From: Escherichia coli | Lineage (GTDB): Bacteria > Pseudomonadota > Gammaproteobacteria > Enterobacterales > Enterobacteriaceae | Assembly (NCBI RefSeq): GCF_030013595.1 | Contig: NZ_CP122768.1 | Reading direction: 5' to 3' (one strand) | DNA: 64,000 nucleotides | Shown: positions 38,504 to 64,000 of the stretch, piece by piece | Layout of the letters: each line of letters starts with the position of its first letter | How positions within the stretch are numbered: the first letter of the stretch is position 1 | Notes under the pieces: model-generated | The model's input: only the letters and a program-made list of their open reading frames with translations | What the model was told of the DNA's origin: nothing | Database searches by the model: none | Program-made: the position numbers and the translations under genes

Positions 38504-38514
38504 GGAAAACCATC

Positions 38515-38766
38515 ATGACAGACCAACAAACCATTTATCAGGAAGTCTCAGCCCTGCTGGTTAAGCTGTTTGAAATCGATCCGCAGGACATCAAACCTGA
38601 AGCGCGACTGTACGAAGATCTGGAACTGGACAGCATCGACGCCGTTGACATGATTGTGCACCTGCAAAAGAAAACCGGTAAGAAAATCAAGCCGGAAGAG
38701 TTTAAAGCAGTGCGTACAGTCCAGGATGTTGTCGAGGCTGTAGAACGCCTGCTACAAGAAGGCTAA
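38515..38766 (+). CDS. apeF: acyl carrier protein (second copy)
   Basis: 83 aa with LELDSIDAVDM motif. Confidence 0.8.
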   Translation: MTDQQTIYQEVSALLVKLFEIDPQDIKPEARLYEDLELDSIDAVDMIVHLQKKTGKKIKPEEFKAVRTVQDVVEAVERLLQEG

Positions 38767-38770
38767 TTTG

Positions 38771-42714: not shown

Positions 42715-42717
42715 AGG

Positions 42718-46029: not shown

Positions 46030-46610
46030 TCAAATCCACATTCTGGCGAGCGTTCGCCCTGACCGCTACGCTTATCCTCACCGGCTGTAGCCACTCGCAA
46101 CCAGAACAGGAAGGCCGCCCGCAGGCGTGGCTGCAACCTGGCACGCGCATCACGCTGCCGGCACCAGGGATTTCACCCGCAGTCAATTCGCAGCAACTGT
46201 TGACCGGCAGCTTCAACGGCAAAACCCAGTCGCTGTTAGTGATGCTTAACGCCGACGATCAGAAAATCACCCTTGCCGGGCTGTCGTCGGTCGGCATTCG
46301 CCTGTTTCTGGTGACCTACGATGCGCAAGGGCTACGCGCCGAGCAATCCATCGTCGTCCCACAGTTACCGCCCGCAAGTCAGGTACTGGCTGACGTGATG
46401 CTCAGCCACTGGCCGATTAGCGCCTGGGAGGCGCAACTTCCCGCAGGATGGACACTTCGCGACAACGGTGACAAACGCGAGCTGCGTAACGCCAGCGGCA
46501 AACTGGTCACGGAAATCACCTATCTGAATCGCCAGGGAAAACGCGTGCCAATCAGAATTGAGCAGCATGTCTTTAAATACCACATCACCATTCAATACTT
46601 AGGTGAATGA
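46026..46610 (+). CDS. apeN: DUF3261-type lipoprotein
   Basis: 194 aa, lipobox LTGCSHS; ATGA overlap with apeM. Confidence 0.6.
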   Translation: MIKSTFWRAFALTATLILTGCSHSQPEQEGRPQAWLQPGTRITLPAPGISPAVNSQQLLTGSFNGKTQSLLVMLNADDQKITLAGLSSVGIRLFLVTYDAQGLRAEQSIVVPQLPPASQVLADVMLSHWPISAWEAQLPAGWTLRDNGDKRELRNASGKLVTEITYLNRQGKRVPIRIEQHVFKYHITIQYLGE

Positions 46611-46611
46611 T

Positions 46612-47781: not shown

Positions 47782-48242
47782 GCCACTATTTATCCCCCGG
47801 CGCTTATCTGCCCCACGACGCGCCCATGTTACTGCTGGAAGACGTGGTGAGCGTCAGCGATGACAGCGCGGTGTGCCGCGTGACGGTTTCGCCCAGTGGC
47901 GTACTGGCACCGTTTCTCGACCCGGACGGCAATCTCCCTGGCTGGTTTGCCCTTGAACTGATGGCGCAAACCGTCGGCGTCTGGTCTGGCTGGCATCGCC
48001 ACCAGCAGGGCAAAAACAGTATTGAGTTAGGGATGATACTGGGCGCGCGTGAATTGCTTTGCACCACTGGCATTCTGCCCGCAGGCCAGACGCTGACCAT
48101 TACCGTCAAACTGCTGATGCAGGACGATCGCTTCGGCAGCTTTGAGTGCAGCATCAACGACGGCGAGGCGACGGGCCGCATTAACACCTTCCAGCCGACC
48201 GCGGAAGAACTTACCACCCTGTTTCAACAAGGAGCGTCCTGA
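47778..48242 (+). CDS. apeP: hotdog-fold 3-hydroxyacyl-ACP dehydratase
   Basis: 154 aa FabA-like; GTGA overlap with apeO stop. Confidence 0.65.
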   Translation: MSHYLSPGAYLPHDAPMLLLEDVVSVSDDSAVCRVTVSPSGVLAPFLDPDGNLPGWFALELMAQTVGVWSGWHRHQQGKNSIELGMILGARELLCTTGILPAGQTLTITVKLLMQDDRFGSFECSINDGEATGRINTFQPTAEELTTLFQQGAS

Positions 48243-48973
48243 TGAGTCGTTCAGTTCTGGTTACTGGTGCCAGCAAAGGCATTGGTCGCGCCATCGCCTG
48301 CAAGCTTGCGGCAGACGGCTTTAACATTGGCGTTCACTATCACCGTGACGCCACAGGCGCTCAGGAAACGCTGAATGCCATTGTCGCCAACGGGGGTAAC
48401 GGGCGTTTGCTCAGTTTCGACGTCGCAAACCGCGAACAGTGTCGGGAAGTGCTGGAGCATGAGATCGCGCAACACGGTGCCTGGTACGGCGTGGTCAGTA
48501 ACGCCGGGATCGCCCGCGATGCCGCTTTTCCGGCTTTAAGCGATGACGACTGGGATGCGGTGATCCACACCAACCTCGACAGTTTCTACAACGTCATTCA
48601 GCCGTGCATTATGCCAATGATCGGCGCGCGCCAGGGTGGGCGCATCATCACGCTGTCCTCGGTTTCCGGCGTAATGGGCAATCGCGGCCAGGTGAATTAC
48701 AGCGCAGCCAAAGCCGGAATTATCGGCGCAACAAAAGCACTGGCTATCGAACTCGCAAAGCGCAAAATCACCGTCAATTGCATCGCGCCAGGGCTTATTG
48801 ATACCGGGATGATCGAAATGGAAGAAAGCGCTCTGAAAGAGGCAATGTCGATGATCCCCATGAAACGTATGGGCCAGGCGGAAGAAGTTGCCGGGCTTGC
48901 CAGTTATTTAATGTCTGATATTGCGGGTTACGTCACCCGCCAGGTTATTTCCATCAACGGAGGGATGTTATGA
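48242..48973 (+). CDS. apeQ: SDR-family 3-oxoacyl-ACP reductase (FabG-like)
   Basis: Rossmann motif VTGASKGIGRAIA and catalytic YSAAK. Confidence 0.85.
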   Translation: MSRSVLVTGASKGIGRAIACKLAADGFNIGVHYHRDATGAQETLNAIVANGGNGRLLSFDVANREQCREVLEHEIAQHGAWYGVVSNAGIARDAAFPALSDDDWDAVIHTNLDSFYNVIQPCIMPMIGARQGGRIITLSSVSGVMGNRGQVNYSAAKAGIIGATKALAIELAKRKITVNCIAPGLIDTGMIEMEESALKEAMSMIPMKRMGQAEEVAGLASYLMSDIAGYVTRQVISINGGML

Positions 48974-50199
48974 CACGTCGCGTAGTGATTACAGGAATGG
49001 GCGGCGTGACTGCCTTTGGTGAAAACTGGCAGGACGTTTCTGCACGCTTACTGGCGTATGAAAATGCGGTGCGCAAAATGCCGGAGTGGCAGGTCTACGA
49101 TGGGCTGCACACCCTGCTTGGCGCGCCTGTTGATGATTTCACGCTACCGGAGCACTACACCCGCAAGCGTATCCGTGCGATGGGCCGCGTGTCGCAAATG
49201 TCGACCCGTGCCAGCGAGCTGGCGTTAGAGCAGGCAGGGTTGATTGGCGATCCGATATTAACCAGCGGCGAAACGGGCATTGCGTACGGTTCATCGACCG
49301 GCAGTACCGGTCCGGTGAGCGAATTTGCCACCATGCTGACTGAAAAGCACACGAACAACATCACTGGCACCACCTATGTGCAGATGATGCCGCACACCAC
49401 CGCTGTTAATACTGGCCTCTTTTTCGGCCTGCGCGGGCGGGTGATCCCAACCTCCAGCGCCTGTACCTCCGGCAGCCAGGCGATCGGTTATGCGTGGGAA
49501 GCCATTCGCCACGGTTATCAAACGGTGATGGTTGCCGGTGGTGCCGAAGAGTTATGCCCTTCAGAAGCAGCAGTGTTTGATACCCTTTTTGCCACCAGCC
49601 AGCACAATGATGCGCCGAAAACCACACCTTCACCGTTCGATGAAAACCGCGACGGACTGGTGATTGGTGAAGGCGCAGGTACGCTCATTCTCGAAGAACT
49701 GGAGCATGCCAAAGCGCGCGGCGCGACCATTTACGGTGAAATCGTCGGCTTTGCGACGAACTGCGACGCGGCACATATTACCCAGCCGCAGCGCGAAACC
49801 ATGCAGTATTGTATGGAGCAATCGCTGAAAATCGCAGGGTTAAGCGCACAAGATATCGGCTATATTTCAGCGCATGGTACGGCGACCGATCGCGGTGATA
49901 TGGCAGAAAGTCTGGCGACAGCAACCATTTACGGTGATAATGTGCCGCTCTCCTCGCTGAAAAGTTATTTTGGTCATACGCTTGGTGCCTGTGGCGCGCT
50001 CGAAGCCTGGATGAGTCTGCAAATGATGCGCGAAGGTTGGTTTGCGCCTACGCTAAACCTGAATAAACCAGACCCGAATTGTGGCGCGCTGGATTACATC
50101 ATGCATGAAGCCCGCAGGGTTGATTGTGAGTTTTTGCAGAGTAACAACTTTGCCTTTGGCGGCATTAATACATCCATCATTATTAAGCGCTGGCCCTGA
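48970..50199 (+). CDS. apeR: beta-ketoacyl-ACP synthase (FabB/FabF-like)
   Basis: 409 aa with TSSACTSGSQAIG active-site Cys, AHGTATD and GHTLGACG histidines; ATGA overlap with apeQ. Confidence 0.85.
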   Translation: MTRRVVITGMGGVTAFGENWQDVSARLLAYENAVRKMPEWQVYDGLHTLLGAPVDDFTLPEHYTRKRIRAMGRVSQMSTRASELALEQAGLIGDPILTSGETGIAYGSSTGSTGPVSEFATMLTEKHTNNITGTTYVQMMPHTTAVNTGLFFGLRGRVIPTSSACTSGSQAIGYAWEAIRHGYQTVMVAGGAEELCPSEAAVFDTLFATSQHNDAPKTTPSPFDENRDGLVIGEGAGTLILEELEHAKARGATIYGEIVGFATNCDAAHITQPQRETMQYCMEQSLKIAGLSAQDIGYISAHGTATDRGDMAESLATATIYGDNVPLSSLKSYFGHTLGACGALEAWMSLQMMREGWFAPTLNLNKPDPNCGALDYIMHEARRVDCEFLQSNNFAFGGINTSIIIKRWP

Positions 50200-51038
50200 G
50201 TTATACAACCACATGGACATCCCATGTGGTGATTCTTCAAAAAATCTGAATCAATGAATATGAACCTCAAATTCTCTTACGCATACTGAAGAGCATTCCG
50301 TATAACGATTCAGCAGACAAAACTTTATCAGTCCACACGAATCAACGGATGCACAGATGACACGCCCGGTTATCACCGGGCAATGGTTGCCATAACGGGT
50401 AACATAAGGGACTGAACAGTTGTCTTTAGCGCAACGAACTGATCTAACGTACCTGAACGGACAACCTGAAAACAGTCTTTCACCCTGCATTGTCCGCCAG
50501 TGCTTATTACCAACCACGTCTGTTGCAGTAAAGTAATCAGTTGCGAACATTATTTATCAATCGTGACGCTGGCTCGCGCATGGCAGAAAAGGTCCTGACT
50601 GAGCAACAACAGGCATCGTACTGTTGCTGCTCCATGTTGTTTATATGAACGCATCCCGTTTGCAAGGCTTCCGTGTTTTTGACGTTGACGGTAGATTGCT
50701 GCTCTATATCCTTATTGCAGCCGGTGCTGCGGGCCTCAATGAGATTCGCTGACTCTCGCCTTATTCACGCAACGAGCTTTAAGCTCAGAAAAACATCCAA
50801 GTTTGGTGAGTCACAGTCTTACCTGTCGTTGTCATCAATATAGGAATGGATAATCTGGAGAGCGATACTGCAGGCTGATATTGCGGTTTTGCGACAAGTT
50901 TTTAGCATCCGCTTCTACGCCAAATACCTGAAGTAGGAATGGATGCGTTAGCAGCATACATCCGGAACTGCGCGGGGAATAGCCGGAAACGGCTATCCCT
51001 ACCACAATAGCTAACTTTGTAATAGCGCTCTTTTAGGC

Positions 51039-52070
51039 TCATGTACTCTGACGTAATTCTATCTGGTAGTTGAATTGCACGATACGCGACTCTTCTGATT
51101 CATCATGATTATTATTCAATAGTCCAATCAGTAACTTACCTGTCTCTATCCCCATTTTTTTGTAGTCAATACGGATGGATGTCAAAGTTGGGTGTGTTTG
51201 ATCGCAATTGTCTGAACCGTCAAGACAAGCTACAGCGATATTTCCAGGGATTTTTAACAAACGCCGCTGGCACTCAAACATTATACCCAGCGCAATCTCT
51301 TCGTGGCTGCAAATCACAGCATCCAGCTCTGGTTGTCGCAGTAATATCTCGTTTAATGCGTAACGCCCCAATTGCAGACTTGCGGCATCCGGCATGGTGA
51401 TAACAAGATCAGTGTTCTGGTAATGGCTCAGCATTGCTTTATGCCAGCCGTTCAGTTGCTGACGTTGCAGGCGGTTGTCCATATGCGCACCGATAAATCC
51501 GATATTCTTATAACCCTGCTCCAGCAGATGTTCGGTCAGTTTATGTGATGCTTCAAAAAATGCTGTTTCGATGGTAATTTGAGCCGGACTGAAAGGGGAA
51601 CCGATAACGTTAATGGTAGGTATATTTGTTTTCTCGAGTATCTGGTGAGTTTTATCAGCCAACTGAGAACCAAAAATAACTAACGCCGCCGGGTTGCCTT
51701 GAAGAAGCGTCATCAGAATTTCAGCTTCTTTGAGCTGATTATACTCATGACACCCAAGCAGTAGCTGGAATTCATTTTTATTAAGCACCTGCTGTAATGA
51801 CTGCATAAAGCGGGAGCTGGCTTTATCTGTCAGGGAAGGAACCAGTACGGCGACTGTATGACTGTGACCAGATGCAAGGGCGCCAGCAGTTCTGTTGGGA
51901 ATATAACCCAACTCTTCTACGGCCTGTTCTATCTTTTCCCTCAGCTTGTCAGAAACCTGTTCCGGTGTTCTCAGCGCGCGGGAAACGGTCATAGTTCCGA
52001 CACCTGCAAAGTTAGCGACCTCCTGCAGCGTCACCCGTCCGGTACCACGGCGCTTACGTGTTTTTTCCAT
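51039..52070 (-). CDS. LacI-family transcriptional regulator
   Basis: N-terminal HTH VTLQEVANFAGVGTMTVSRAL and periplasmic-binding-protein-like effector domain; divergent from the PTS genes. Confidence 0.85.
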   Translation of the reverse strand: MEKTRKRRGTGRVTLQEVANFAGVGTMTVSRALRTPEQVSDKLREKIEQAVEELGYIPNRTAGALASGHSHTVAVLVPSLTDKASSRFMQSLQQVLNKNEFQLLLGCHEYNQLKEAEILMTLLQGNPAALVIFGSQLADKTHQILEKTNIPTINVIGSPFSPAQITIETAFFEASHKLTEHLLEQGYKNIGFIGAHMDNRLQRQQLNGWHKAMLSHYQNTDLVITMPDAASLQLGRYALNEILLRQPELDAVICSHEEIALGIMFECQRRLLKIPGNIAVACLDGSDNCDQTHPTLTSIRIDYKKMGIETGKLLIGLLNNNHDESEESRIVQFNYQIELRQST

Positions 52071-52340: not shown

Positions 52341-52784
52341 ATGTTAAAAAATCTATTAAATACAGAGGTCGTTCAGGTCGTGGAACAGGTCAAAGACTGG
52401 CGGGAAGCCGTGGCGATTTCATGCCGACCGTTGATTGAAAACGGCTCTATCGAACCGCGTTATGTTGATGCGATCTATCACTCGCACGACACTATCGGTC
52501 CGTACTATGTGGTTGGCCCTGGTATTGCGATGCCTCATGCGCGCCCGGAAGAGGGGGCTAACAAGCTGTCATTAGCACTGACCCTGATCCCTTCAGGTGT
52601 GAATTTTGATGCCGATGAAAACGATCCAGTGAAATTACTGATTGTGCTGGCTGCAACCGACAGTACCAGCCACATTGAAGCGATTTCTCAACTCGCCAAG
52701 TTATTCGATAACGAAAAAGACATACAGGCCATTTTGACGGCCAAAACGACGCAGGACATTTTGTCTGTTATTGCGCGCTATTAA
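52341..52784 (+). CDS. PTS EIIA component (PTS_EIIA_2 type)
   Basis: 147 aa, phosphorylatable His in GIAMPHARP. Confidence 0.8.
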   Translation: MLKNLLNTEVVQVVEQVKDWREAVAISCRPLIENGSIEPRYVDAIYHSHDTIGPYYVVGPGIAMPHARPEEGANKLSLALTLIPSGVNFDADENDPVKLLIVLAATDSTSHIEAISQLAKLFDNEKDIQAILTAKTTQDILSVIARY

Positions 52785-52799
52785 TCCAGAGGAACATTT

Positions 52800-53087
52800 A
52801 TGAAAATTACAGTGGTTTGCGGTAACGGCTTAGGCACCAGCCTGATGATGGAAATGAGCATTAAAAGCATTTTGAAGGATTTGTCCGTCAGCGCTGATGT
52901 TGATCACGTCGACCTGGGCTCCGCGAAAGGGACGCCGAGTGATATCTATGTCGGCACCAAAGACATTGCCGAGCAGTTAGCCGCGCAGTCTGTCGCAGGC
53001 AAAATCGTCGCACTGGAAAATATGATTGATAAGAAAGCCATGAGAGAACGTTTGTCCGTGGTATTAACCGAATTAGGCGCACTGTAA
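52800..53087 (+). CDS. PTS EIIB component (ascorbate/SgaB-like)
   Basis: 95 aa, active-site Cys in VVCGNGLGTS. Confidence 0.8.
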   Translation: MKITVVCGNGLGTSLMMEMSIKSILKDLSVSADVDHVDLGSAKGTPSDIYVGTKDIAEQLAAQSVAGKIVALENMIDKKAMRERLSVVLTELGAL

Positions 53088-53099
53088 GCTGGGGGCGAT

Positions 53100-54356
53100 A
53101 TGGATTTCTTTCGTTTTTTGATGAGCGATGTACTTTCCGAACCCGCAGTGCTGGTCGGTTTAATCGCCCTGATTGGCCTGATTGCACAGAAAAAACCGGT
53201 AACCGAATGCATTAAAGGTACCGTCAAGACCATTATGGGGTTTGTGATTTTAGGCGCAGGGGCGGGTTTAGTTGTGTCGTCACTGGGTGACTTCGCAAAC
53301 ATTTTCCAGCATGCCTTTGGTATTCAGGGTGTAGTGCCGAACAATGAAGCCATTGTTTCCGTAGCGCAGAAAAGCTTCGGGAAAGAAATGGCGATGATTA
53401 TGTTCTTTGCGATGGTTATCAACATTATGATTGCCCGTTTCACACCGTGGAAATTTATCTTCCTGACCGGTCATCACACGTTGTTTATGTCGATGATGGT
53501 AGCGGTAATTCTGGCAACAGCAGGCATGACCGGCATTACGCTTATAGCCGTTGGCTCTTTGGTTGTTGGCGTGGCAATGGTCTTTTTCCCGGCTATTGCG
53601 CATCCGTACATGAAGAAAGTGACCGGTTCTGATGACGTTGCCATCGGCCACTTCTCAACATTATCTTATGTATTGGCCGGTTTCATCGGCAGCAAGTTTG
53701 GTAATAAAGAGCACTCGACTGAAGACATGAATGTGCCGAAAAGTCTGCTGTTCTTGCGCGACACGCCGGTTGCTATCTCTTTTACCATGAGCATAATTTT
53801 CCTGGTGACGTGCCTGTTTGCGGGTGCAGATGCGGTGAAAGAGCTTAGCGGTGGTAAAAACTGGTTCATGTTCTCTATCATGCAATCCATTACCTTCGCA
53901 GCTGGCGTGTACATCATTCTGCAGGGTGTGCGCATGGTGATTGCGGAGATTGTCCCGGCATTCAAAGGTATTTCAGACAAGCTGGTTCCGAATGCCAGAC
54001 CTGCTCTCGATTGCCCGGTCGTCTTCCCTTACGCACCTAACGCTGTACTGGTTGGTTTCCTGAGTAGCTTTGCTGCAGGTTTAATCGGTATGTTCACGTT
54101 GTATCTGCTGAACATGATCGTGATTATTCCTGGTGTGGTGCCGCACTTCTTCGTAGGTGCAGCTGCAGGGGTATTCGGTAATGCAACGGGTGGACGTCGT
54201 GGTGCGATTTTGGGTGCCTTCGCTCAGGGCTTGCTTATTACCTTCCTGCCAGTATTCTTATTGCCGGTGCTGGGTGATATTGGTTTTGCTAACACCACCT
54301 TCAGTGATGCTGACTTTGGCGCACTGGGTATTTTGTTAGGGATTATCGTTCGCTAA
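53100..54356 (+). CDS. PTS EIIC permease (ascorbate/UlaA-SgaT family)
   Basis: 418 aa polytopic membrane protein directly after EIIB. Confidence 0.8.
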   Translation: MDFFRFLMSDVLSEPAVLVGLIALIGLIAQKKPVTECIKGTVKTIMGFVILGAGAGLVVSSLGDFANIFQHAFGIQGVVPNNEAIVSVAQKSFGKEMAMIMFFAMVINIMIARFTPWKFIFLTGHHTLFMSMMVAVILATAGMTGITLIAVGSLVVGVAMVFFPAIAHPYMKKVTGSDDVAIGHFSTLSYVLAGFIGSKFGNKEHSTEDMNVPKSLLFLRDTPVAISFTMSIIFLVTCLFAGADAVKELSGGKNWFMFSIMQSITFAAGVYIILQGVRMVIAEIVPAFKGISDKLVPNARPALDCPVVFPYAPNAVLVGFLSSFAAGLIGMFTLYLLNMIVIIPGVVPHFFVGAAAGVFGNATGGRRGAILGAFAQGLLITFLPVFLLPVLGDIGFANTTFSDADFGALGILLGIIVR

Positions 54357-54571
54357 TATTTTGATGACATTAATATCCTCCAGGATTTCAGGAACGTGGA
54401 GGATATTAATTCCTCTTATTTTCTCCATTTTTCTTTCTTCCAGTCAGGACTGCATCCGATTAATCGTAAGCGCTCCGAGAAGTACGTAGCGTAAGGATTA
54501 TTTTACAGCTGAGAAGTTTCAGTGCAGCAGTTCATGCACACGGTTCGACGGCTAGTCATTGATCTTCATAA

Positions 54572-54856
54572 TTACCTCGCGTAAAAAACGGGGTAAGGCC
54601 GCTCATCCAGCGTCATCTCCACAGGTAATAATTCAACGCCAATGCCAGAAGAGTTCGTTACCGGAAGACGCCGTGATATACGCCCTTTGATCAGCGAGAG
54701 CCTGAGCCATTTGAACAGAAGATTATCATTGATATCATGCTCCCGGGCAATACGGGCAACAGAACCCCTTGGTTGTAAAGCCAGTTTAACCATTTGAAGT
54801 TTAAACTCATTTGAAAATGACCTGCGGGGTTCAACTGATAATGTTTTTTGTTCCAT
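54572..54856 (-). mobile_element. IS3-family transposase OrfA-like fragment
   Basis: 94-aa ORF with HTH transposase-8 pattern (FSNEFKLQMVKLALQPRGSVARIAREHDINDNLLFKWLR) but no adjacent OrfB or inverted repeats identified. Confidence 0.5.
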
Positions 54857-55277
54857 AACAGGTGTCCACTAGTTGAAAAGGTGGGTACCTATGTTACCAA
54901 TACTGGCTTAATGGCTACATACAGCAGTCGGTTTACGCATACACTTTTATAGTGCACTCCGGCCTCATGAATATAACGGTGGATTACCGCCGAACGAATC
55001 GGAAAATAGATACTGGAAAAAAACTGAAATTGTGACCAGTTTTTGTTGACCACTACAAATAAATAAAAGAGTTGCAGTGCTTGCTCGGTAAGAAAACAAT
55101 GGAGGTTAAGCTCCTCAAAGAAGCTGTGGAGTACACCACTCTACAGTAGTTGCGCAAATTTGGAGTGGACGATAATGTGATCGTCTATAAGGGCAACGCT
55201 ATCATAGTCTTGTCCTGGCGGGTAAAAAAACGCGCTTACCTTAACGATAAGCGCGCCGCTGTTCAGGCCTTGAGTGG

Positions 55278-56291
55278 TTATTCAATTCCTGTGGTGACTG
55301 TAAAAGTGCGCGTTTGCTGCGGTGCAACCTGAATCAGCGTGCCATTACGTTGCGCGGCAAGATACCCCTCAGGCCGACAGGTTGCAGGTAATGCAAAGGC
55401 GGCTACCTGTTGCTCTCCGTTATAAAGGATCCAGCGTGTCACATAATTTAGTTCAGCACTGTAGAAACGAGTAACAAACGTAGTGCCATCGGGAGAGATC
55501 ATGCGAAACTCTGGCTGATCTGTATAAGCGTCCAGTTTGTCTGCAAAGAAGACAATTTCTGGATCATAAAATTCCGGTTGACTCAGCGTCGACAGAGAGG
55601 CTTCTCCCTGCATAATCCGTTGATTAAACGCCAGCCACTGAGCGGTGGGATTAACATGCGAAGGCACTGATTCACGCAATCTTAATATTTCGTCCGGGAT
55701 ATTCTGGCTGAATGTAGCATTTGGTATATATGCATAATTCATGTGGCACATATATTGTAGTGGCATATCTACAGAAGCCAGATTGGTTACGGCCATCTTA
55801 ATATCGAACAGTGTAGAGGATTTGTGAAGGACCACTGTTGGCTGAGCCAGATAATGATGACCGAAACCCATTACATACTCGTAACGCCCGTTAAGGCGTA
55901 ACATATCTCCGTCTAATTCCAGCCATGCTTCATCCATCGCGGCACAGGCCATTTCACCGTGTAGCAGATGAGTATCTTCCACAGATGGGCAGCCATTAGC
56001 CAGCAAACCTGAATGAAAAGCAAAACAGCCATAGGTCTCTATCACCTCTGTCGCCGGTTTAGGCTGGCGAAACATATTGCACATGGTGAGGCCGTGTCCA
56101 TCAAATTGCGCATCCCAAATCATCTGCCCCATCCAGGGAAGAATAATCAAATGTCCACGACTGTTTGCAATTTTAAGCCCCTCGACACCGCTGTCATATC
56201 GAAAAGACGTGACAGTAAAATCACTATTTTCCAGCAAGATACGAGGTTTCTCGCCAAAAAGCGCCCGCCACAAATTAATACGCGTACTCAT
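55278..56291 (-). CDS. deoX: DeoX-like protein of unknown function (third gene of deoKPX-type module)
   Basis: 337-aa ORF downstream of the permease gene; assignment by operon context and recollection of the deoQKPX organisation; fold not verified. Confidence 0.45.
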   Translation of the reverse strand: MSTRINLWRALFGEKPRILLENSDFTVTSFRYDSGVEGLKIANSRGHLIILPWMGQMIWDAQFDGHGLTMCNMFRQPKPATEVIETYGCFAFHSGLLANGCPSVEDTHLLHGEMACAAMDEAWLELDGDMLRLNGRYEYVMGFGHHYLAQPTVVLHKSSTLFDIKMAVTNLASVDMPLQYMCHMNYAYIPNATFSQNIPDEILRLRESVPSHVNPTAQWLAFNQRIMQGEASLSTLSQPEFYDPEIVFFADKLDAYTDQPEFRMISPDGTTFVTRFYSAELNYVTRWILYNGEQQVAAFALPATCRPEGYLAAQRNGTLIQVAPQQTRTFTVTTGIE

Positions 56292-56302
56292 AACGATTCT
56301 CC

Positions 56303-57619
56303 TCAGGACGCTGTGACTTCAGCCAGTGCGGTACGTACTTTGCTTTCACGCCAGAAGTAGACTCCGACATAGACAAAGCAGAGCATAGAAACCAGGAATG
56401 AAAGCTGTAGTGAGTGGAACATATCTGCAATATATCCCTGAATTGCCGGAACCACCGCGGCACCGACAATAGCCATAACAATGACTGCTCCTGCCATTTC
56501 TGTATGTTCGTTATCAACTGTATCCAGTGTTCCTGCATAGATCGTCGCCCAGCAAGGGCCAAACAAAACACTTACCAGGACGGCGACATAGACCGCGCTG
56601 AAACTTGGAGCCAGTGCAACATATGCCAGGAACAGCGCCCCTATAACGGAATAGAGAATCAATACTTTTTCCGGATTAAAACGCGTCATAAGGATATTGG
56701 CTATAAACTTGCCAATAAAGAAGCAGGCAAAGCTATAGACCATGAAGTTTGAAGCATCACGTTCGTTGATATCGCCCAACTCCAGCGCCAGACGGATGGT
56801 AAATGACCATACTGCGACCTGCATACCCACATAAAGGAACTGCGCCACAATACCGCGACGAAAGCGCGGATTTCTAGCCAGATAGCGCAGCGTATCCATT
56901 GCTGACGGGCGTTTATGGTGACTTGTCTGTGCCACTTTACAGGTTGGGAAGCGGGTTAAAAGGAACAACACCATGACCACAACCAGAATCATAATCATAT
57001 ACTTATACGGTTCAAGGGTGTTCTCTAACATCAGCACCTTAAAGTTGTGAATTTGCTCGGCGTTCATTCCTGACATCTGCTTTTCAAGGCTTTCCCCCTC
57101 GGAGAAAACCAGATATTTGCCCAATAAAATACCAGACGCAGCACCAATCGGATAAAAGGTCTGGCTGATATTGAGCCGCAATGTGGCATAGGCTTTTGGA
57201 CCGATCATTGAACTGTATGTGTTCGCTGCAGTTTCAAGGAAACTCAGGCCAATCGCAATCGCAAAAATAGCTGCAAGGAACATAGTGTAGGTTGCCATAT
57301 GCGAGGCAGGGAAAAAAAGTGTACAACCACCAATATACAGCGTCAGGCCAATTAAAATTGCCACCTTATAACTGGTCTTTTTAATCACAAGGGATGCTGG
57401 TATTGCAATTAAAAAATAACCTCCATAAAATGCGCTCTGCACCAATGCTGAAGCAAAGTTACTTAGCGAAAATACACTTTTGAATTGAGTGATTAATATG
57501 TCATTTAATGCAGCTGCGCATCCCCATAGCGGGAATAAACACGATAACAAAATAAACTGGAACAAGGGAGTCTTATTCAGATACCCATCAGGCATCTGAA
57601 TGATGTTTTTATCGTTCAT
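56303..57619 (-). CDS. deoP: MFS sugar permease (FucP-like), putative deoxyribose permease
   Basis: 438 aa, 12-TM MFS profile; between kinase and deoX-like genes. Confidence 0.6.
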   Translation of the reverse strand: MNDKNIIQMPDGYLNKTPLFQFILLSCLFPLWGCAAALNDILITQFKSVFSLSNFASALVQSAFYGGYFLIAIPASLVIKKTSYKVAILIGLTLYIGGCTLFFPASHMATYTMFLAAIFAIAIGLSFLETAANTYSSMIGPKAYATLRLNISQTFYPIGAASGILLGKYLVFSEGESLEKQMSGMNAEQIHNFKVLMLENTLEPYKYMIMILVVVMVLFLLTRFPTCKVAQTSHHKRPSAMDTLRYLARNPRFRRGIVAQFLYVGMQVAVWSFTIRLALELGDINERDASNFMVYSFACFFIGKFIANILMTRFNPEKVLILYSVIGALFLAYVALAPSFSAVYVAVLVSVLFGPCWATIYAGTLDTVDNEHTEMAGAVIVMAIVGAAVVPAIQGYIADMFHSLQLSFLVSMLCFVYVGVYFWRESKVRTALAEVTAS

Positions 57620-57646
57620 AGTGCTACCTTTAACTGTGCAGGATGA

Positions 57647-58540
57647 TTATTCGTTTAAGGTTAAAAATTCATTAAATTGTTCAATACTCGGATAAGATGA
57701 TTGCGTACCTTTCCCTGTGACGCTGAAAGCGGCAAAGAGAGCGGCTTTTTTCAAAGCGGCTTCAACATCACCGCTTTGAACATAATAATGGGAAAAGCAA
57801 CCAATAAATGCGTCACCAGCGCCACTAGTATCAACAGCATTTACTTTGAATGCAGGAACATGGACTTCCTGATCGCGGGTCATCCATAATGCGCCTTTTT
57901 CGCTCATGGTAACAATAATATTGTTCAGCCCTTTATCAACTAACGAACGTGCGGCCAAACGAATATGATCATAAGTATCAACCGACATACCGGTTAATAT
58001 TTCCAGTTCTGTTTCATTCGGGATAAAGAAATCACATTTGCAGGCATAAGACATATCTAACTCACGCAATGCCGGAGCCGGATTTAATAACACTTCAATA
58101 CCATTTTTCTTACCAAACTCAATCGCGTGGTAAACTGTTTCCAGTTGAACTTCCAGTTGTAAAACGATCAATTTGCATTTTTTCAGATCTTCTGCAGCTC
58201 GATCGATATCTTCCGGGGAAAGAAATTTATTCGCTCCCTTAATTATTAATATACTATTGCTCGAGTTGGCATTAACAAAGATCGGTGCAACACCACTGCT
58301 GGTACAGGGGACTTTCTCAACATAAGTGGTATTAATTCCCCATGATTCGAGATTACGAATAGTATTATCCGCAAAAATATCATCACCTACTTTAGTCAGC
58401 ATCAGGACTTTTGAATTCAATTTAGCCGCCGCCACCGCTTGATTAGCACCTTTCCCACCACATCCGATTTTGAAGGCAGGTGCTTCCAGAGTTTCTCCTT
58501 CTTTAGGCATCTGATTAGTGTAAGTAATGAGATCCACCAT
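57647..58540 (-). CDS. deoK: ribokinase-family sugar kinase, putative deoxyribokinase; 5' end cut by IS1
   Basis: Ribokinase motifs GGKGANQAVAAA and DTSGAGDAF; upstream in-frame codons ...VIGSN run straight into the IS1 terminal repeat, so the native start codon and promoter are missing. Confidence 0.65.
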   Translation of the reverse strand: MVDLITYTNQMPKEGETLEAPAFKIGCGGKGANQAVAAAKLNSKVLMLTKVGDDIFADNTIRNLESWGINTTYVEKVPCTSSGVAPIFVNANSSNSILIIKGANKFLSPEDIDRAAEDLKKCKLIVLQLEVQLETVYHAIEFGKKNGIEVLLNPAPALRELDMSYACKCDFFIPNETELEILTGMSVDTYDHIRLAARSLVDKGLNNIIVTMSEKGALWMTRDQEVHVPAFKVNAVDTSGAGDAFIGCFSHYYVQSGDVEAALKKAALFAAFSVTGKGTQSSYPSIEQFNEFLTLNE

Positions 58541-58572
58541 ATTGGAACCAATAACTGGGTAATGACTCCAAC

Positions 58573-59076
58573 TTACTGATAGTGTTTTATGTTCAGATAA
58601 TGCCCGATGACCTTGTCATGCAGCTCCACCGATTTTGAGAACGACAGTGACTTCCGTCCCAGCCTTGCCAGATGTTGTCTCAGATTCAGGTTATGCCGCT
58701 CAATGCGCTGAGTATAACGCTTGCTGATAACGTGCAGCTTTCCCTTCAGGCGTGATTCATACAGCGGCCAGCCATCCGTCATCCATACCACGACCTCAAA
58801 GGCCGACAGCAGGCTCAGAAGACGCTCCAGTGTGGCCAGAGTGCGTTCACCGAAGACGTGCGCCACAACCGTCCTCCGCATCCTGTCATACGCGTAAAAC
58901 AGCCAGCGCTGACGTGATTTAGCACCGACGTAGCCCCACTGTTCGTCCATTTCAGCGCAGACAATCACATCACTGCCCGGTTGTATGCGCGAGGTTACCG
59001 ACTGCGGCCTGAGTTTTTTAAGTGGCGGAAAATCGTGTTGAGGCCAACGCCAATAATGCGTGCACTGGCGCGACAT
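58573..59076 (-). CDS. insB: IS1 InsB (expressed as InsAB' by frameshifting)
   Basis: 167-aa ORF overlapping insA in the -1 frame. Confidence 0.85.
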
Positions 59077-59270
59077 CCGACGCCATTCATGGCCATATCA
59101 ATGATTTTCTGGTGCGTACCGGGCTGAGAGGCGGCGTAAGTGAACTGTAGTTGCCATGTTTTACGGCAGTGAGAGCAGAGATAGCGCTGATGTCCGGCGG
59201 TGCTTTTGCCGTTACGCACCACCCCGTCAGTAGCTGAACAGGAGGGACAGCTGATAGAAACAGAAGCCAC
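58995..59270 (-). CDS. insA: IS1 InsA
   Basis: 91-aa [23 protein letters not shown]... Confidence 0.9.
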
Positions 59271-59325
59271 TGGAGCACCTCAAAAACACCATCATACACT
59301 AAATCAGTAAGTTGGCAGCATCACC

Positions 59326-60027
59326 GACAATGCAGATGGTTCAACCATGCTGGATAAACGTTATGTCATCACTAACGGTAATCAGCTGGCGATTCAAAAT
59401 GATTTACTGGAGAGTTTATCAAAAGCGTTAAACCAACCGTGGCCACAACGAATGCAGGAGATGCTCCAGCAAATTTTGCCTCATCGTGGTGCGTTATTAA
59501 CTAATTTTTATCAGGCACATGATTATTTACTGCATGGCGATGATAAATCATTGAACCGTGCCAGTGAATTATTAGGTGAGATTGTTCAATCATCCCCAGA
59601 ATTTACCTACGCGAGAGCAGAAAAAGCATTAGTTGATATCGTGCGCCATTCTCAACATCCTTTAGATGAAAAACAATTAGCAGCACTGAACACAGACATA
59701 GATAACATTGTTACACTACCGGAATTGAATAACCTGTCCATTATATATCAAATAAAAGCGGTCAGTGCTCTGGTAAAAGGTAAAACAGATGAGTCTTACC
59801 AGGCGATAAATACTGGCATTGATCTTGAAATGTCCTGGCTAAATTATGTGTTGCTTGGCAAGGTTTATGAAATGAAGGGGATGAACCGGGAAGCAGCTGA
59901 TGCATATCTCACCGCCTTTAATTTACGCCCAGGGGCAAACACCCTTTACTGGATTGAAAATGGTATATTCCAGACTTCTGTTCCTTATGTTGTACCTTAT
60001 CTCGACAAATTTCTCGCTTCAGAATAA
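59326..60027 (+). pseudogene. cadC: cadC 3' fragment (C-terminal periplasmic sensor domain only), truncated by IS1
   Basis: Reading frame continues from the IS1 boundary and ends ...NTLYWIENGIFQTSVPYVVPYLDKFLASE, the CadC C-terminus; the N-terminal DNA-binding and TM regions are absent. Confidence 0.85.
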
Positions 60028-60392
60028 GTAACTCCCGGGTTGATTTATGCTCGGCAAGATTTGTTGTTGAGTTTTTGTATGTTTCTGTTGGTATAATATG
60101 TTGCGGCAATTTATTTGCCGCATAATTTTTATTACATAAATTTAACCAGAAAATGTCCCACAATCCATTGTAAATATTGAATGTTTATCTTTTCATGATA
60201 TCAACTTGCGATCCTGATGTGTTAATAAAAAACCTCAAGTTCTCACTTACAGAAACTTTTGTGTTATTTCACCTAATCTTTAGGATTAATCCTTTTTTCG
60301 TGAGTATTCTTAGCGCCAGTTTGGTCTGGTCAGGAAATAGTTATACATCATGACCCGGACTCCAAATTCAAAAATGAAATTAGGAGAAGAGC
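60028..60392 (+). promoter_or_regulatory. cadBA promoter region (Pcad, CadC-dependent)
   Basis: AT-rich 365-bp intergenic region between cadC remnant and cadB; individual binding sites not mapped. Confidence 0.5.
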
Positions 60393-61727
60393 ATGAGTTC
60401 TGCCAAGAAGATCGGGCTATTTGCCTGTACCGGTGTTGTTGCCGGTAATATGATGGGGAGCGGTATTGCATTATTACCTGCGAACCTAGCAAGTATCGGT
60501 GGTATTGCTATCTGGGGTTGGATTATCTCTATTATTGGTGCAATGTCGCTGGCGTATGTATATGCCCGACTGGCAACAAAAAACCCGCAACAAGGTGGCC
60601 CAATTGCTTATGCCGGAGAAATTTCCCCTGCATTTGGTTTTCAGACAGGTGTTCTTTATTACCATGCTAACTGGATTGGTAACCTGGCGATTGGTATTAC
60701 CGCTGTATCTTATCTTTCCACCTTCTTCCCAGTATTAAATGATCCTGTTCCGGCGGGTATCGCCTGTATTGCTATCGTCTGGGTATTTACCTTTGTAAAT
60801 ATGCTCGGCGGTACCTGGGTAAGCCGTTTAACCACTATTGGTCTGGTGCTGGTTCTTATTCCTGTGGTAATGACAGCTATTGTTGGCTGGCATTGGTTTG
60901 ATGCTGCGACTTATGCTGCTAACTGGAATACTGCGGATACCACCGATGGTCATGCGATCATTAAAAGTATTCTGCTCTGCCTGTGGGCCTTCGTGGGTGT
61001 TGAATCCGCAGCTGTAAGTACTGGTATGGTTAAAAACCCGAAACGTACCGTTCCGCTGGCAACCATGCTGGGTACTGGTTTAGCAGGTATTGTTTATATC
61101 GCTGCGACTCAGGTGCTTTCCGGTATGTATCCGTCTTCTGTAATGGCAGCTTCCGGTGCTCCGTTTGCAATCAGTGCTTCAACTATCCTCGGTAACTGGG
61201 CTGCGCCGCTGGTTTCTGCATTCACCGCCTTTGCGTGCCTGACCTCTCTGGGCTCCTGGATGATGTTGGTAGGCCAGGCAGGTGTACGTGCCGCTAACGA
61301 CGGTAACTTCCCGAAAGTTTATGGTGAAGTCGACAGCAACGGTATTCCGAAAAAAGGTCTGCTGCTGGCTGCAGTGAAAATGACTGCCCTGATGATCCTC
61401 ATCACTCTGATGAACTCTGCCGGTGGTAAAGCATCTGACCTGTTCGGTGAACTGACCGGTATCGCAGTACTGCTGACTATGCTGCCGTACTTCTACTCTT
61501 GCGTTGACCTGATTCGTTTTGAAGGCGTTAACATCCGCAACTTTGTCAGCCTGATCTGCTCTGTACTGGGTTGCGTGTTCTGCTTCATCGCGCTGATGGG
61601 CGCAAGCTCCTTCGAGCTGGCAGGTACCTTCATCGTCAGCCTGATTATCCTGATGTTCTACGCTCGCAAAATGCACGAGCGCCAGAGCCACTCAATGGAT
61701 AACCACACAGCGTCTAACGCACATTAA
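60393..61727 (+). CDS. cadB: lysine/cadaverine antiporter CadB
   Basis: 444 aa APC-family transporter upstream of cadA. Confidence 0.95.
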   Translation: MSSAKKIGLFACTGVVAGNMMGSGIALLPANLASIGGIAIWGWIISIIGAMSLAYVYARLATKNPQQGGPIAYAGEISPAFGFQTGVLYYHANWIGNLAIGITAVSYLSTFFPVLNDPVPAGIACIAIVWVFTFVNMLGGTWVSRLTTIGLVLVLIPVVMTAIVGWHWFDAATYAANWNTADTTDGHAIIKSILLCLWAFVGVESAAVSTGMVKNPKRTVPLATMLGTGLAGIVYIAATQVLSGMYPSSVMAASGAPFAISASTILGNWAAPLVSAFTAFACLTSLGSWMMLVGQAGVRAANDGNFPKVYGEVDSNGIPKKGLLLAAVKMTALMILITLMNSAGGKASDLFGELTGIAVLLTMLPYFYSCVDLIRFEGVNIRNFVSLICSVLGCVFCFIALMGASSFELAGTFIVSLIILMFYARKMHERQSHSMDNHTASNAH

Positions 61728-61742
61728 TTAAAAGTATTTTCC

Positions 61743-61790
61743 GAGGCTCCTCCTTTCATTTTGTCCCATGTGTTGGGAGGGGCCTTTTTT
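61743..61790 (+). terminator. putative attenuating terminator between cadB and cadA
   Basis: Imperfect GC-rich inverted repeat ggctcctcc...gggaggggcc followed by tttttt. Confidence 0.45.
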
Positions 61791-61806
61791 ACCTGGAGAT
61801 ATGACT

Positions 61807-63954
61807 ATGAACGTTATTGCAATATTGAATCACATGGGGGTTTATTTTAAAGAAGAACCCATCCGTGAACTTCATCGCGCGCTTGAACGTCTGAACTTCC
61901 AGATTGTTTACCCGAACGACCGTGACGACTTATTAAAACTGATCGAAAACAATGCGCGTCTGTGCGGCGTTATTTTTGACTGGGATAAATATAATCTCGA
62001 GCTGTGCGAAGAAATTAGCAAAATGAACGAGAACCTGCCGTTGTACGCGTTCGCTAATACGTATTCCACTCTCGATGTAAGCCTGAATGACCTGCGTTTA
62101 CAGATTAGCTTCTTTGAATATGCGCTGGGTGCTGCTGAAGATATTGCTAACAAGATCAAGCAGACCACTGACGAATATATCAACACTATTCTGCCTCCGC
62201 TGACCAAAGCACTGTTTAAATATGTTCGTGAAGGTAAATATACTTTCTGTACTCCTGGTCACATGGGCGGTACTGCATTCCAGAAAAGCCCGGTAGGTAG
62301 CCTGTTCTATGATTTCTTTGGTCCGAACACCATGAAATCTGATATTTCCATTTCAGTATCTGAACTGGGTTCTCTGCTGGATCACAGTGGTCCACACAAA
62401 GAAGCAGAACAGTATATCGCTCGCGTCTTTAACGCAGACCGCAGCTACATGGTGACCAACGGTACTTCCACTGCGAACAAAATTGTTGGTATGTACTCTG
62501 CTCCAGCAGGCAGCACCATTCTGATTGACCGTAACTGCCACAAATCGCTGACCCACCTGATGATGATGAGCGATGTTACGCCAATCTATTTCCGCCCGAC
62601 CCGTAACGCTTACGGTATTCTTGGTGGTATCCCACAGAGTGAATTCCAGCACGCTACCATTGCTAAGCGCGTGAAAGAAACACCAAACGCAACCTGGCCG
62701 GTACATGCTGTAATTACTAACTCTACCTATGATGGTCTGCTGTACAACACCGACTTCATCAAGAAAACACTGGATGTGAAATCCATCCACTTTGACTCCG
62801 CGTGGGTGCCTTACACCAACTTCTCACCGATTTACGAAGGTAAATGCGGTATGAGCGGTGGCCGTGTAGAAGGGAAAGTGATTTACGAAACCCAGTCTAC
62901 TCACAAACTGCTGGCGGCGTTCTCTCAGGCTTCCATGATCCACGTTAAAGGTGACGTAAACGAAGAAACCTTTAACGAAGCCTACATGATGCACACCACC
63001 ACTTCTCCGCACTACGGTATCGTGGCGTCCACTGAAACCGCTGCGGCGATGATGAAAGGCAATGCAGGTAAGCGTCTGATCAACGGTTCCATTGAACGTG
63101 CGATCAAATTCCGTAAAGAGATCAAACGTCTGAGAACGGAATCTGATGGCTGGTTCTTTGATGTATGGCAGCCGGATCATATCGATACGACTGAATGCTG
63201 GCCGCTGCGTTCTGACAGCACCTGGCACGGCTTCAAAAACATCGATAACGAGCACATGTATCTTGACCCGATCAAAGTCACCCTGCTGACTCCGGGGATG
63301 GAAAAAGACGGCACCATGAGCGACTTTGGTATTCCGGCCAGCATCGTGGCGAAATACCTCGACGAACATGGCATCGTTGTTGAGAAAACCGGTCCGTATA
63401 ACCTGCTGTTCCTGTTCAGCATCGGTATCGATAAGACCAAAGCACTGAGCCTGCTGCGTGCTCTGACAGACTTCAAACGTGCGTTCGATCTGAACCTGCG
63501 TGTGAAAAACATGCTGCCGTCTCTGTATCGTGAAGATCCTGAATTCTATGAAAACATGCGTATTCAGGAACTGGCTCAGAATATCCACAAACTGATTGTT
63601 CACCACAATCTGCCGGATCTGATGTATCGCGCATTTGAAGTTCTGCCGACCATGGTAATGACTCCGTATGCTGCGTTCCAGAAAGAGCTGCACGGTATGA
63701 CCGAAGAAGTTTACCTCGACGAAATGGTAGGTCGTATTAACGCCAATATGATCCTTCCGTATCCGCCGGGAGTTCCTCTGGTAATGCCGGGTGAAATGAT
63801 CACCGAAGAAAGCCGTCCGGTTCTGGAGTTCCTGCAGATGCTGTGTGAAATCGGCGCTCACTATCCGGGCTTTGAAACCGATATTCACGGTGCATACCGT
63901 CAGGCTGATGGCCGCTATACCGTTAAGGTATTGAAAGAAGAAAGCAAAAAATAA
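61807..63954 (+). CDS. cadA: inducible lysine decarboxylase CadA
   Basis: Start at MNVIAILNHMGVYFKEEP (715 aa); PLP-binding region with STHKLL present. Confidence 0.97.
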   Translation: MNVIAILNHMGVYFKEEPIRELHRALERLNFQIVYPNDRDDLLKLIENNARLCGVIFDWDKYNLELCEEISKMNENLPLYAFANTYSTLDVSLNDLRLQISFFEYALGAAEDIANKIKQTTDEYINTILPPLTKALFKYVREGKYTFCTPGHMGGTAFQKSPVGSLFYDFFGPNTMKSDISISVSELGSLLDHSGPHKEAEQYIARVFNADRSYMVTNGTSTANKIVGMYSAPAGSTILIDRNCHKSLTHLMMMSDVTPIYFRPTRNAYGILGGIPQSEFQHATIAKRVKETPNATWPVHAVITNSTYDGLLYNTDFIKKTLDVKSIHFDSAWVPYTNFSPIYEGKCGMSGGRVEGKVIYETQSTHKLLAAFSQASMIHVKGDVNEETFNEAYMMHTTTSPHYGIVASTETAAAMMKGNAGKRLINGSIERAIKFRKEIKRLRTESDGWFFDVWQPDHIDTTECWPLRSDSTWHGFKNIDNEHMYLDPIKVTLLTPGMEKDGTMSDFGIPASIVAKYLDEHGIVVEKTGPYNLLFLFSIGIDKTKALSLLRALTDFKRAFDLNLRVKNMLPSLYREDPEFYENMRIQELAQNIHKLIVHHNLPDLMYRAFEVLPTMVMTPYAAFQKELHGMTEEVYLDEMVGRINANMILPYPPGVPLVMPGEMITEESRPVLEFLQMLCEIGAHYPGFETDIHGAYRQADGRYTVKVLKEESKK

Positions 63955-63965
63955 TTAGCTCGTAC

Positions 63966-63996
63966 AAGGGAAGTGGCTTGCCACTTCCCTTTTTTG
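63966..63996 (+). terminator. rho-independent terminator after cadA
   Basis: aagggaagtggc-ttg-ccacttccctt hairpin followed by ttttttg. Confidence 0.8.
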
Positions 63997-64000
63997 CTCA

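Follow-up and report, generated by a model that had tools for sequence, protein, structure and literature searches.

Intact deoxyribose modules begin with a complete kinase gene and a divergently encoded regulator. How did the module studied here come to start inside an IS1 element, and can it still be expressed? We analysed a 64,000-nucleotide stretch of Escherichia coli DNA (hereafter the window), in which the deoKPX module lies in a genomic island at tRNA-Phe (pheU), upstream of cadCBA. The evidence makes it highly probable that the IS1 element marks a deletion of ~21 kb, which trimmed the start of deoK at one edge and the front half of cadC at the other, and that the deo and cad functions are likely off.

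The locus

The features on which the argument draws are as follows.

22562-22637, + strand: tRNA-Phe (pheU), identified with ARAGORN; attachment site and left end of the deoKPX island
22835-24097, + strand: island integrase (tyrosine recombinase), from its open reading frame and the annotation of the 99.9% identical P13-6 segment
51039-54356: vpe-type module adjoining deoKPX, from the ORF list and RefSeq names of intact loci
51039-52070, - strand: LacI-family regulator of the vpe-type module, from the ORF list
52341-54356, + strand: PTS IIA, IIB and IIC genes of the vpe-type module, from the ORF list
55278-56291, - strand: deoX, 337 aa, aldose-1-epimerase-like (DUF4432), intact, from the ORF list and Pfam
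56303-57619, - strand: deoP, 438 aa, FucP-like MFS permease, intact, from the ORF list
57647-58557, - strand: deoK remnant, a PfkB/ribokinase-family deoxyribokinase whose coding sequence is without its first 10 nt
58558-59325, - strand: IS1, complete, 768 bp; deoK adjoins its right end
59326-60027, + strand: cadC remnant, limited to codons 280-512 (a portion of the periplasmic sensor domain)
60393-61727, + strand: cadB, lysine/cadaverine antiporter, 444 aa, intact
61807-63954, + strand: cadA, lysine decarboxylase, 715 aa, intact

The three deo genes share one strand and the gene order of the deoQKPX locus, with deoP and deoX downstream of the kinase. The coordinates that an earlier note on this DNA gave for the module and for the IS1 edge all hold. 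DeoK matches TIGR02152 (366 bits) and is 96% identical to a Salmonella protein named deoxyribokinase. DeoP matches NCBIfam TIGR00885 (fucP; 324 bits, over the cut-off) and Pfam MFS_1, and the DeoX counterparts in intact loci carry the RefSeq name "aldose 1-epimerase family protein". The other flank of IS1, which the earlier note overlooked, holds cadC codons 280-512 followed by intact cadBA.

The island itself is a truncated member of the vpe-deoK-Ag43 type found at tRNA-Phe (pheU/pheV). It retains the tRNA, the integrase, vpe and deoKPX but has lost Ag43 and the right direct repeat. Operons of the vpe and deoK kinds are neighbours in E. coli islands (PMC6455142). Because its right att repeat is lost, the island would now be fixed in place.

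IS1 marks a 21-kb deletion

The IS1 element is complete. It spans 768 bp, with ends GGTAATGACTCC... and ...GGCAGCATCACC, and has imperfect terminal inverted repeats of ~23 bp (ends GGTGATGCTGCCAACTTACTGAT and GGTAATGACTCCAACTTACTGAT). Its insA (59270-58995) and insB' (59076-58573) genes, both matched by NF033558, are accompanied by the A6C motif for -1 frameshifting (TTAAAAAAC at IS1 position 304). Both genes lie on the - strand, so IS1 transcription does read into the kinase, as had been noticed earlier. A search for an 8-9 bp target-site duplication around the element found none, the flanks being CAATAACTG and GACAATGCA, which points to a deletion and not to a simple insertion.

Comparison with P13-6, an E. 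coli O141:H4 strain with the same pheU island and the same tRNA-integrase-IS1-fec layout, defines that deletion. Window positions 54001-58557 are 100% identical to positions 161-4717 of the P13-6 locus (L004), deoP and deoX each being 100% identical to their P13-6 copies, and positions 59326-64000 match 25879-30552 of the same locus. The two flanks are colinear and share one orientation, but 21,161 bp that separate them in P13-6 are missing, and a single IS1 stands in their place. The gap begins at deoK nucleotide 11, extends to cadC codon 279 and corresponds to positions 4459717-4480877 of the P13-6 sequence NZ_CP080223.1. The rest of the window contains no part of the missing segment except the 137-bp pheU/att repeat. 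An inversion or translocation was rejected, since the flanks keep the order and orientation of the intact island and the lost DNA does not reappear in the window. The earlier note had taken the event for an IS1 insertion at the kinase; the kinase junction is instead one edge of a deletion whose other edge lies in cadC, at 59326.

In the intact island, deoK is followed by deoQ, an ilvN remnant, small zinc-ribbon, YfjJ and Hha genes, YfjI, a GTPase and Ag43. Beyond Ag43 come a CP4-like antirestriction and YeeU-CbtA block, the right att repeat, an integrase remnant and then cadC. Judged against P13-6, the window has therefore lost deoQ, Ag43, the CP4-like module, the right att repeat of the island and cadC codons 1-279. 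For the deoxyribose module, this removes the divergent DeoR-family gene deoQ and the 302-bp control region. Among ~1,600 deoK-positive complete E. coli genomes, 1,596 have deoQ, with a gap of 302 bp to deoK, and the gene is also present in the intact loci L001 and L004. This comparison with intact loci bears out the earlier suggestion that the first codons of the kinase, its promoter and a divergent regulator are missing.

How the deletion arose

We propose the following route. IS1 would first have inserted into cadC, a recurrent target of this element. From there it would have transposed replicatively within the same molecule, in the manner of the classical IS1 "adjacent deletion", to the AT-rich beginning of deoK. 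The IS1 copy would have stayed, with everything between the two sites erased, including one copy of the target duplication. Intramolecular transposition of IS1 is known to leave the element without direct repeats (PMC9330008).

A second route leads to the same product. IS1 could have inserted twice and independently, into the first codons of deoK and, similarly oriented, into cadC. Homologous recombination between the two copies would then have deleted the interval and likewise left a lone IS1 whose flanking repeats do not match (PMC9330008). IS elements demonstrably target both sites: IS1 has struck cadC three times independently, and in locus L005 an IS3-family element struck the deoK start 3 nt away. 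However, this route needs two insertions and a recombination instead of one insertion and one transposition event. Moreover, neither single insertion occurs at the exact position among 5,426 complete genomes, and no intermediate with IS1 at only one of the sites was found among them. We regard two-copy recombination as possible but rather unlikely. The first insertion may have been in cadC or in deoK, and the route may have been one-ended transposition or two-copy recombination. Gene loss of this kind is ordinary and well understood; the deletion is low in novelty and raises no new mechanistic question.

The deoxyribose module is probably silent

The kinase of intact loci has 306 amino acids and the N-terminus MDIAVIGSNMVDL (MDIAVIGSNM), a start that is kept in the deoxyribokinases of three genera, E. 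coli, Salmonella and Citrobacter. Exactly 10 nt of this coding sequence are missing from the window, comprising M1, D2, I3 and one base of A4, and the ribosome-binding site AAGAGG is absent along with them. Residues 10-306 are identical to the intact protein. Reading the open frame, we see the VIGSN codons continue straight into the IS1 terminal repeat, as the earlier note described. Across the junction the frame reads ...HYP-VIGSN-M-VDLITY, with an in-frame stop 22 codons upstream, inside IS1.

Translation of this remnant would have to begin at Met10 (58538-58540), the first ATG left. Between the upstream IS1 stop and Met10 the deoK frame has no ATG, GTG or TTG, and a search for an alternative start within IS1 found none. 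An InsB-DeoK fusion was considered and rejected, as insB' stops in a different frame 33 nt upstream. Shine-Dalgarno pairing at Met10 is -2.2 kcal/mol, equal to the background median, compared with -7.1 kcal/mol at the native kinase start. Gene callers do output a 297-aa kinase from Met10. Conserved residues 3-9, which would be missing from this product, match the N-terminal segment in alignments with solved ribokinases; those structures align to DeoK from residue 3 onward. AlphaFold2 run on full-length DeoK with a 5-sequence alignment gave a model of low confidence (mean pLDDT 45.7, with residues 1-118 below 50), too low to show residues 1-9 as a core strand, and the argument on the N-terminal residues rests on the alignments to solved ribokinases and the textbook ribokinase fold. 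On the evidence of its sequence, deoK is a 5'-truncated pseudogene that has lost its promoter, ribosome-binding site and start codon. With no Shine-Dalgarno sequence at Met10 and the protein's first conserved segment lost, the module is probably silent.

Transcription from the insA promoter is weak and subject to autorepression, and IS1 insertions are known classically for their polar effects. The deoxyribose pathway is most likely off, because deoP and deoX, although intact, lie downstream of 0.9 kb of untranslated remnant and of an IS1 whose transcription is weak and autorepressed. Two weak promoter-like matches inside deoK, upstream of deoP (57997-57968 and 57939-57912), may allow low-level transcription of deoP and deoX. 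Salmonella without deoK does not grow on deoxyribose (PMC13432705), and growth of this strain on 2-deoxy-D-ribose should be negative.

The earlier note had offered two outcomes, silencing or constitutive expression by IS1 read-through from the Met at 58540; silencing is the likelier. Constitutive use of deoxyribose would require that read-through or a fusion promoter drive the DeoQ-free module and that DeoK started at Met10 be active. IS1 transcription is indeed directed into deoK, the repressor gene is lost, and deoP and deoX are intact with ribosome-binding sites of their own (-4.1 and -9.2 kcal/mol). IS1 can also switch on neighbouring genes through fusion promoters (PMC9330008). At this junction, however, no hybrid promoter between IS1 and its flank was found: the best match is 7/12, and no -10 hexamer is suitably spaced from the IS1 end. 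The weakness and autorepression of the insA promoter, the polarity of IS1 insertions and the defects of the Met10 start (poor pairing, no upstream start codon, no fusion frame from insB' and loss of residues 3-9) weigh in the same direction, and we consider constitutive expression quite improbable. Silencing of the module remains our reading.

Lysine decarboxylase activity is probably lost

At the other edge of the deletion, cadC is broken exactly after codon 279 of 512. The match of the remnant to NCBIfam NF007540 is confined to profile positions 292-515; promoter, DNA-binding domain and transmembrane helix have all been lost. In the closest backbone genome, HCP5S3_I2, cadC is intact and the pheU site is empty, and neither cadB nor cadA differs from the copy in the window. 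With cadBA intact and its obligatory activator CadC missing, the strain is probably lysine-decarboxylase negative, as in enteroinvasive E. coli (EIEC). EIEC with defective cadC and intact cadBA makes no cadaverine until cadC is supplied (PMC4156367).

The closest backbone genomes are pig faecal isolates, and the window holds no pathotype marker or sign of invasiveness. The cadC lesion of STEC O117:H7, in which aerobactin genes are inserted, was considered as a counterpart and set aside as a different rearrangement.

Recurrence of the junctions

Both junctions recur beyond the window. An independent draft assembly (L006) reproduces the deoK-IS1 junction byte for byte, and the IS1-cadC junction is exact in the independent drafts L013-L016, in at least 25 samples. 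Neither junction is present in the 5,426 complete RefSeq E. coli genomes. EH2252 and CD09 were examined as junction matches, and both proved to be different IS1 sites.

Short-read drafts break inside IS1, and in them the two junctions are not linked across the element. An assembly artefact, in which two IS1 copies were collapsed into one and the intervening 21 kb dropped, could exploit exactly this gap, and two simple insertions merged in such a way would also show no target duplication. Yet the window assembles cleanly through another IS1 copy (24268-25029) and several other repeats, both junction halves recur in many independent assemblies, and the truncated kinase is on record in a closed chromosome of 5.58 Mb. 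The simple insertions that a collapse requires are absent from the 5,426 complete genomes as well, which leaves an artefact very improbable. That the kinase natively starts at Met 58540 with no regulator upstream, the case the earlier note named against its own reading, is scarcely conceivable: gene callers do give the 297-aa product, but the MDIAVIGSNM form of 306 aa spans three genera, deoQ lies 302 bp upstream of deoK in 1,596 complete genomes, and ribokinase structures align from residue 3.

These observations support a genuine deletion carried by a lineage. One might go further and see in it an adaptive single step in a clonally expanding lineage, represented by the isolates with the junction (at least 25), and not neutral decay. 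Cadaverine synthesis and Ag43 aggregation would have been lost at once, and the deoxyribose permease and DeoX would have come under DeoQ-independent IS1 transcription. We consider this a long shot.

The deletion bears on how such genomes are read. The "ribokinase" and the 226-aa "CadC" reported by gene callers are pseudogene fragments in this lineage. In phenotype scoring, the strain is predicted to be deoxyribose negative and lysine-decarboxylase negative despite intact deoP, deoX, cadB and cadA. Beyond the classical EIEC/Shigella setting, the locus also adds one more case in which IS1 has hit cadC, its recurrent target, and has trimmed a pheU island.

Comparison with known systems

IS1-mediated adjacent deletions were reportedly described by Reif and Saedler in 1975 and by Turlan and Chandler in 1995. 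The window shares their features: a complete IS1 at the edge, no flanking direct repeats, colinear flanks and the loss of tens of kb. It differs in that the mechanism here is inferred, and two-copy IS1 recombination would yield an identical product.

Simple insertions of the same element are found in cadC of other strains. EC556 carries IS1 388 bp away from the window site, 100% identical over 769 bp and with the duplication CACTACCGG, and EH2252 carries IS1 only 12 bp away, with the duplication GGTTCAACC. Element, orientation and gene are the same as in the window. Unlike the window, each of these two insertions is flanked by a 9-bp target duplication, and both strains still have the upstream DNA and the two halves of cadC.

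The deo genes follow the structural gene order of Salmonella enterica deoQKPX and of the deoK operons in E. coli pheV/pheU islands (PAI I/II AL862 and the LAC PAI), with a kinase 96% identical to that of Salmonella. The vpe-type PTS neighbour and the tRNA-Phe site are likewise shared with these islands (PMC6455142, PMC7545054). Unlike them, the window is without deoQ, the control region, the kinase start codon and the Ag43 end.

The closest parallel for the cad edge comes from EIEC, whose cadC lesions were reportedly described by Casalino et al. in 2003. In the cadC-silenced alleles of that group, an IS destroys cadC while cadB and cadA stay intact, as in the window (PMC4156367, PMC5723341), and cadBA-intact, lysine-decarboxylase-negative EIEC alleles of this kind are also associated with Campilongo et al. 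2014. Those alleles are simple insertions in a K-12-colinear locus, whereas the window has a deletion extending 20 kb upstream, into the pheU island.

Structure of the deoxyribose module

An IS1 element separates a three-gene deoxyribose module from the remainder of cadC:

55278-56291, minus strand: deoX, 337 aa, DUF4432, named "aldose 1-epimerase family protein" by RefSeq in intact loci
56303-57619, minus strand: deoP, 438 aa, FucP-type MFS permease (TIGR00885, 324 bits)
57647-58540, minus strand: deoK ORF from its first ATG, 297 aa, PfkB/ribokinase-family kinase (TIGR02152, 366 bits)
58558-59325, minus strand: complete 768-bp IS1 with both inverted repeats, insA, insB' and the TTAAAAAAC frameshift site
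59347-60027, plus strand: 226-aa ORF, the C-terminal portion of CadC (NF007540 match at profile positions 292-515), followed by cadB and cadA

ORF and IS1 boundary mapping confirmed the earlier note's reading that the kinase frame stays open 5' of the ATG at 58538-58540 (...HYP-VIGSN-M) and enters the IS1 terminal repeat, whose first base is 58558. Its reading that IS1 transcription points toward the kinase also held, with insA and insB' on the minus strand. deoK-type modules occur in ~1,600 of 5,426 complete RefSeq E. coli genomes, and the kinase 5' end, intergenic region and regulator form one contiguous stretch in 1,596. Intact loci, such as those of O103:H2 FWSEC0007 and O141:H4 P13-6, encode a 306-aa kinase with a divergent DeoR-family regulator (deoQ) 302 bp upstream. 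The N-terminus of the intact kinase, MDIAVIGSNMVDL, is shared without change by Salmonella and Citrobacter proteins named deoxyribokinase (95-96% identity overall for both), and alignments of solved ribokinases to DeoK begin at residue 3. The native start is therefore not the window's first ATG, which encodes the tenth residue (Met10). The possibility that Met10 is native and that no regulator lies upstream fails against the intact loci. The window follows the intact locus as far as 58557. Beyond that point it lacks, as had been proposed, the first codons (10 nt of coding sequence exactly, ATGGACATTG), the promoter region and deoQ, and it also lacks the AAGAGG ribosome-binding site.

Salmonella lacking deoK does not grow on deoxyribose (PMC13432705). 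In the window, IS1 contains an in-frame stop, and from there to Met10 no start codon was found; insB' terminates 33 nt upstream in a different frame. Predicted Shine-Dalgarno pairing is -2.2 kcal/mol at Met10, equal to the median over all positions of the region, and -7.1 kcal/mol at the native deoK start, within the top 4.5%. Translation from Met10 would leave out residues 3-9, the conserved N-terminal segment of the fold in ribokinase alignments, which we take to be the first strand of the central sheet in E. coli ribokinase; AlphaFold, run on a shallow alignment, gave no usable model (pLDDT 45.7). No sigma-70-like site was found at the IS1-deoK junction, and the best IS1-flank hybrid promoter scored 7/12. 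Transcription of insA starts from a weak, autorepressed promoter, and insertion of IS1 is polar. Because start codon, ribosome binding, N-terminal segment and junction promoter all appear to be missing, and given IS1 polarity and the Salmonella precedent, we conclude that deoK is a putative pseudogene and the deoxyribose pathway probably off, though trace deoP and deoX transcription could persist. Between the two states the earlier note had allowed, silencing is thus the predicted one; constitutive expression by IS1 read-through from Met10 fits poorly with the pairing energy and promoter score.

A 21,161-bp deletion and its proposed origin

Alignment to P13-6 (100% identity across 22.5 kb of island) places window 54001-58557 at positions 161-4717 of its locus and 59326-64000 at 25879-30552, with order and orientation kept and 21,161 bp missing in between. 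The missing stretch comprises deoQ, an ilvN remnant, zinc-ribbon genes, a YfjJ gene (interrupted by IS2 in P13-6), Hha, YfjI, a GTPase and Ag43, together with a block of antirestriction, JAB and YeeU-CbtA genes, an integrase remnant and codons 1-279 of cadC. Elsewhere in the window, none of it was found except the 3' end of pheU, of which a 137-bp copy is present. In cadC the break comes directly after codon 279 of 512, removing the DNA-binding domain and membrane helix of CadC. The mechanical cadA ORF (61768-63954, 728 aa) begins at an upstream ATG; from the native start at 61807 the 715-aa product is identical to cadA of the pig isolate HCP5S3_I2.

Because its 9-bp flanks differ (CAATAACTG versus GACAATGCA), the IS1 at deoK is not a simple insertion. 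IS1 is a textbook cause of deletions that begin at one end of the element, retain it and leave no direct repeats around it (PMC9330008; see also Reif and Saedler 1975, as cited in PMC8860574). Two E. coli strains carry simple IS1 insertions in cadC: in EC556 the element is 100% identical to the window's and lies 388 bp further into the gene (duplication CACTACCGG), and in EH2252 it lies 12 bp from the window's breakpoint (duplication GGTTCAACC). These insertions show cadC to be a repeated IS1 target. Since IS1 is known for such deletions and cadC is repeatedly hit, we favour a route in which IS1 would first have inserted into cadC and then transposed intramolecularly into the AT-rich deoK start.

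Recombination between two IS1 copies would yield the same product and is a serious alternative, the more so as the deoK start is also an IS target. In one assembly (GCA_036456605.1, locus positions 5850-6040), an IS3-family element sits between a retained deoQ and deoK. Only 3 nt separate its end from the IS1 junction of the window (...GGTTCA followed by TTGCAGTTATTGG), an independent event in the first deoK codons that suggests an IS hot spot.

Collapse of two IS1 copies into one during assembly is unlikely, since independent public drafts reproduce both junctions to the base. One draft contig (GCA_036246605.1) crosses from deoK into IS1 for 247 nt, and others begin within IS1 and continue into cadC-cadB-cadA (L013-L016; 99.98-100% identity; at least 25 samples). 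Neither junction was found in 5,426 complete genomes. The exact 297-aa kinase product is recorded on 38 contigs of up to 5.58 Mb. In other lineages, five draft contigs (L007-L011) break off 0-2 nt before the Met10 ATG and so stop 15-17 nt short of the IS1 junction; L007 and L009, the two compared, share 99.9% and 99.65% identity with the window. Looking up the exact protein favours contigs with such coincident ends, but something must still break these assemblies near Met10.

The pheU island and its backbone

The deoxyribose module ends an island that begins at pheU:

22562-22637, plus strand: tRNA-Phe (pheU), followed by the integrase
22615-22751: pheU 3'-end repeat, a 137-bp direct repeat forming the island's left att
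24268-25029, same orientation as the IS1 at 58558: second IS1, 95.4% identical to that copy

After the integrase come the second IS1, fecIRABCDE, a fatty-acid/polyene-type cluster, a LacI-PTS (vpe-type) module and deoXPK. In P13-6, whose island is identical, the annotation gives the second IS1 an internal stop; it is a degenerate resident that did not give rise to the active copy. In this type of pheU island, vpe, deoK and Ag43 travel together (PMC6455142, PMC7545054). The right-hand att partner occurs only in the deleted segment (about 24404-24539 of the P13-6 locus), and therefore the island can no longer excise through its own recombination sites.

The large cluster at 35600-50200 encodes an acyl-CoA synthetase, glycosyltransferase, LolA-like protein, MMPL transporter, DUF3261 protein, ketoacyl-ACP synthases, ApeP dehydratase and FabG2, and resembles clusters of the aryl-polyene type. 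A 94-aa remnant of an IS66-family TnpA accessory protein (54572-54856), situated between the vpe-type PTS module and deoX, is found in intact islands too.

To the left of pheU, the core DNA matches that of two pig isolates at 100% identity; these have an empty pheU site, intact cadC, and CadB and CadA proteins identical to the window's. The island matches P13-6 at 100%, whereas the cad region is 99.06% identical to P13-6 versus 99.98% to HCP5S3_I2, indicating horizontal acquisition into a different backbone. Given the empty pheU site and intact cadC of the pig relatives, the lineage gained the island first and subsequently lost its distal third with half of cadC.

Consequences and relation to known systems

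Enteroinvasive E. coli whose cadC is defective but whose cadBA is intact produce cadaverine only after cadC has been provided (PMC4156367, PMC5723341). As cadBA requires CadC, and by this precedent, the strain should be lysine-decarboxylase negative. The deletion matters mainly for annotation and phenotype prediction; only selection for it in an expanding clone, through loss of cadaverine and Ag43, would raise its interest if true.

No description of the deoK-IS1-cadC allele was found in the open literature searched. Its components are known: the deoK operon of tRNA-Phe islands, IS1 adjacent deletions, and IS-mediated silencing of cadC. What is specific here is the allele, in which one IS1 joins deoK nucleotide 11 to cadC codon 280.
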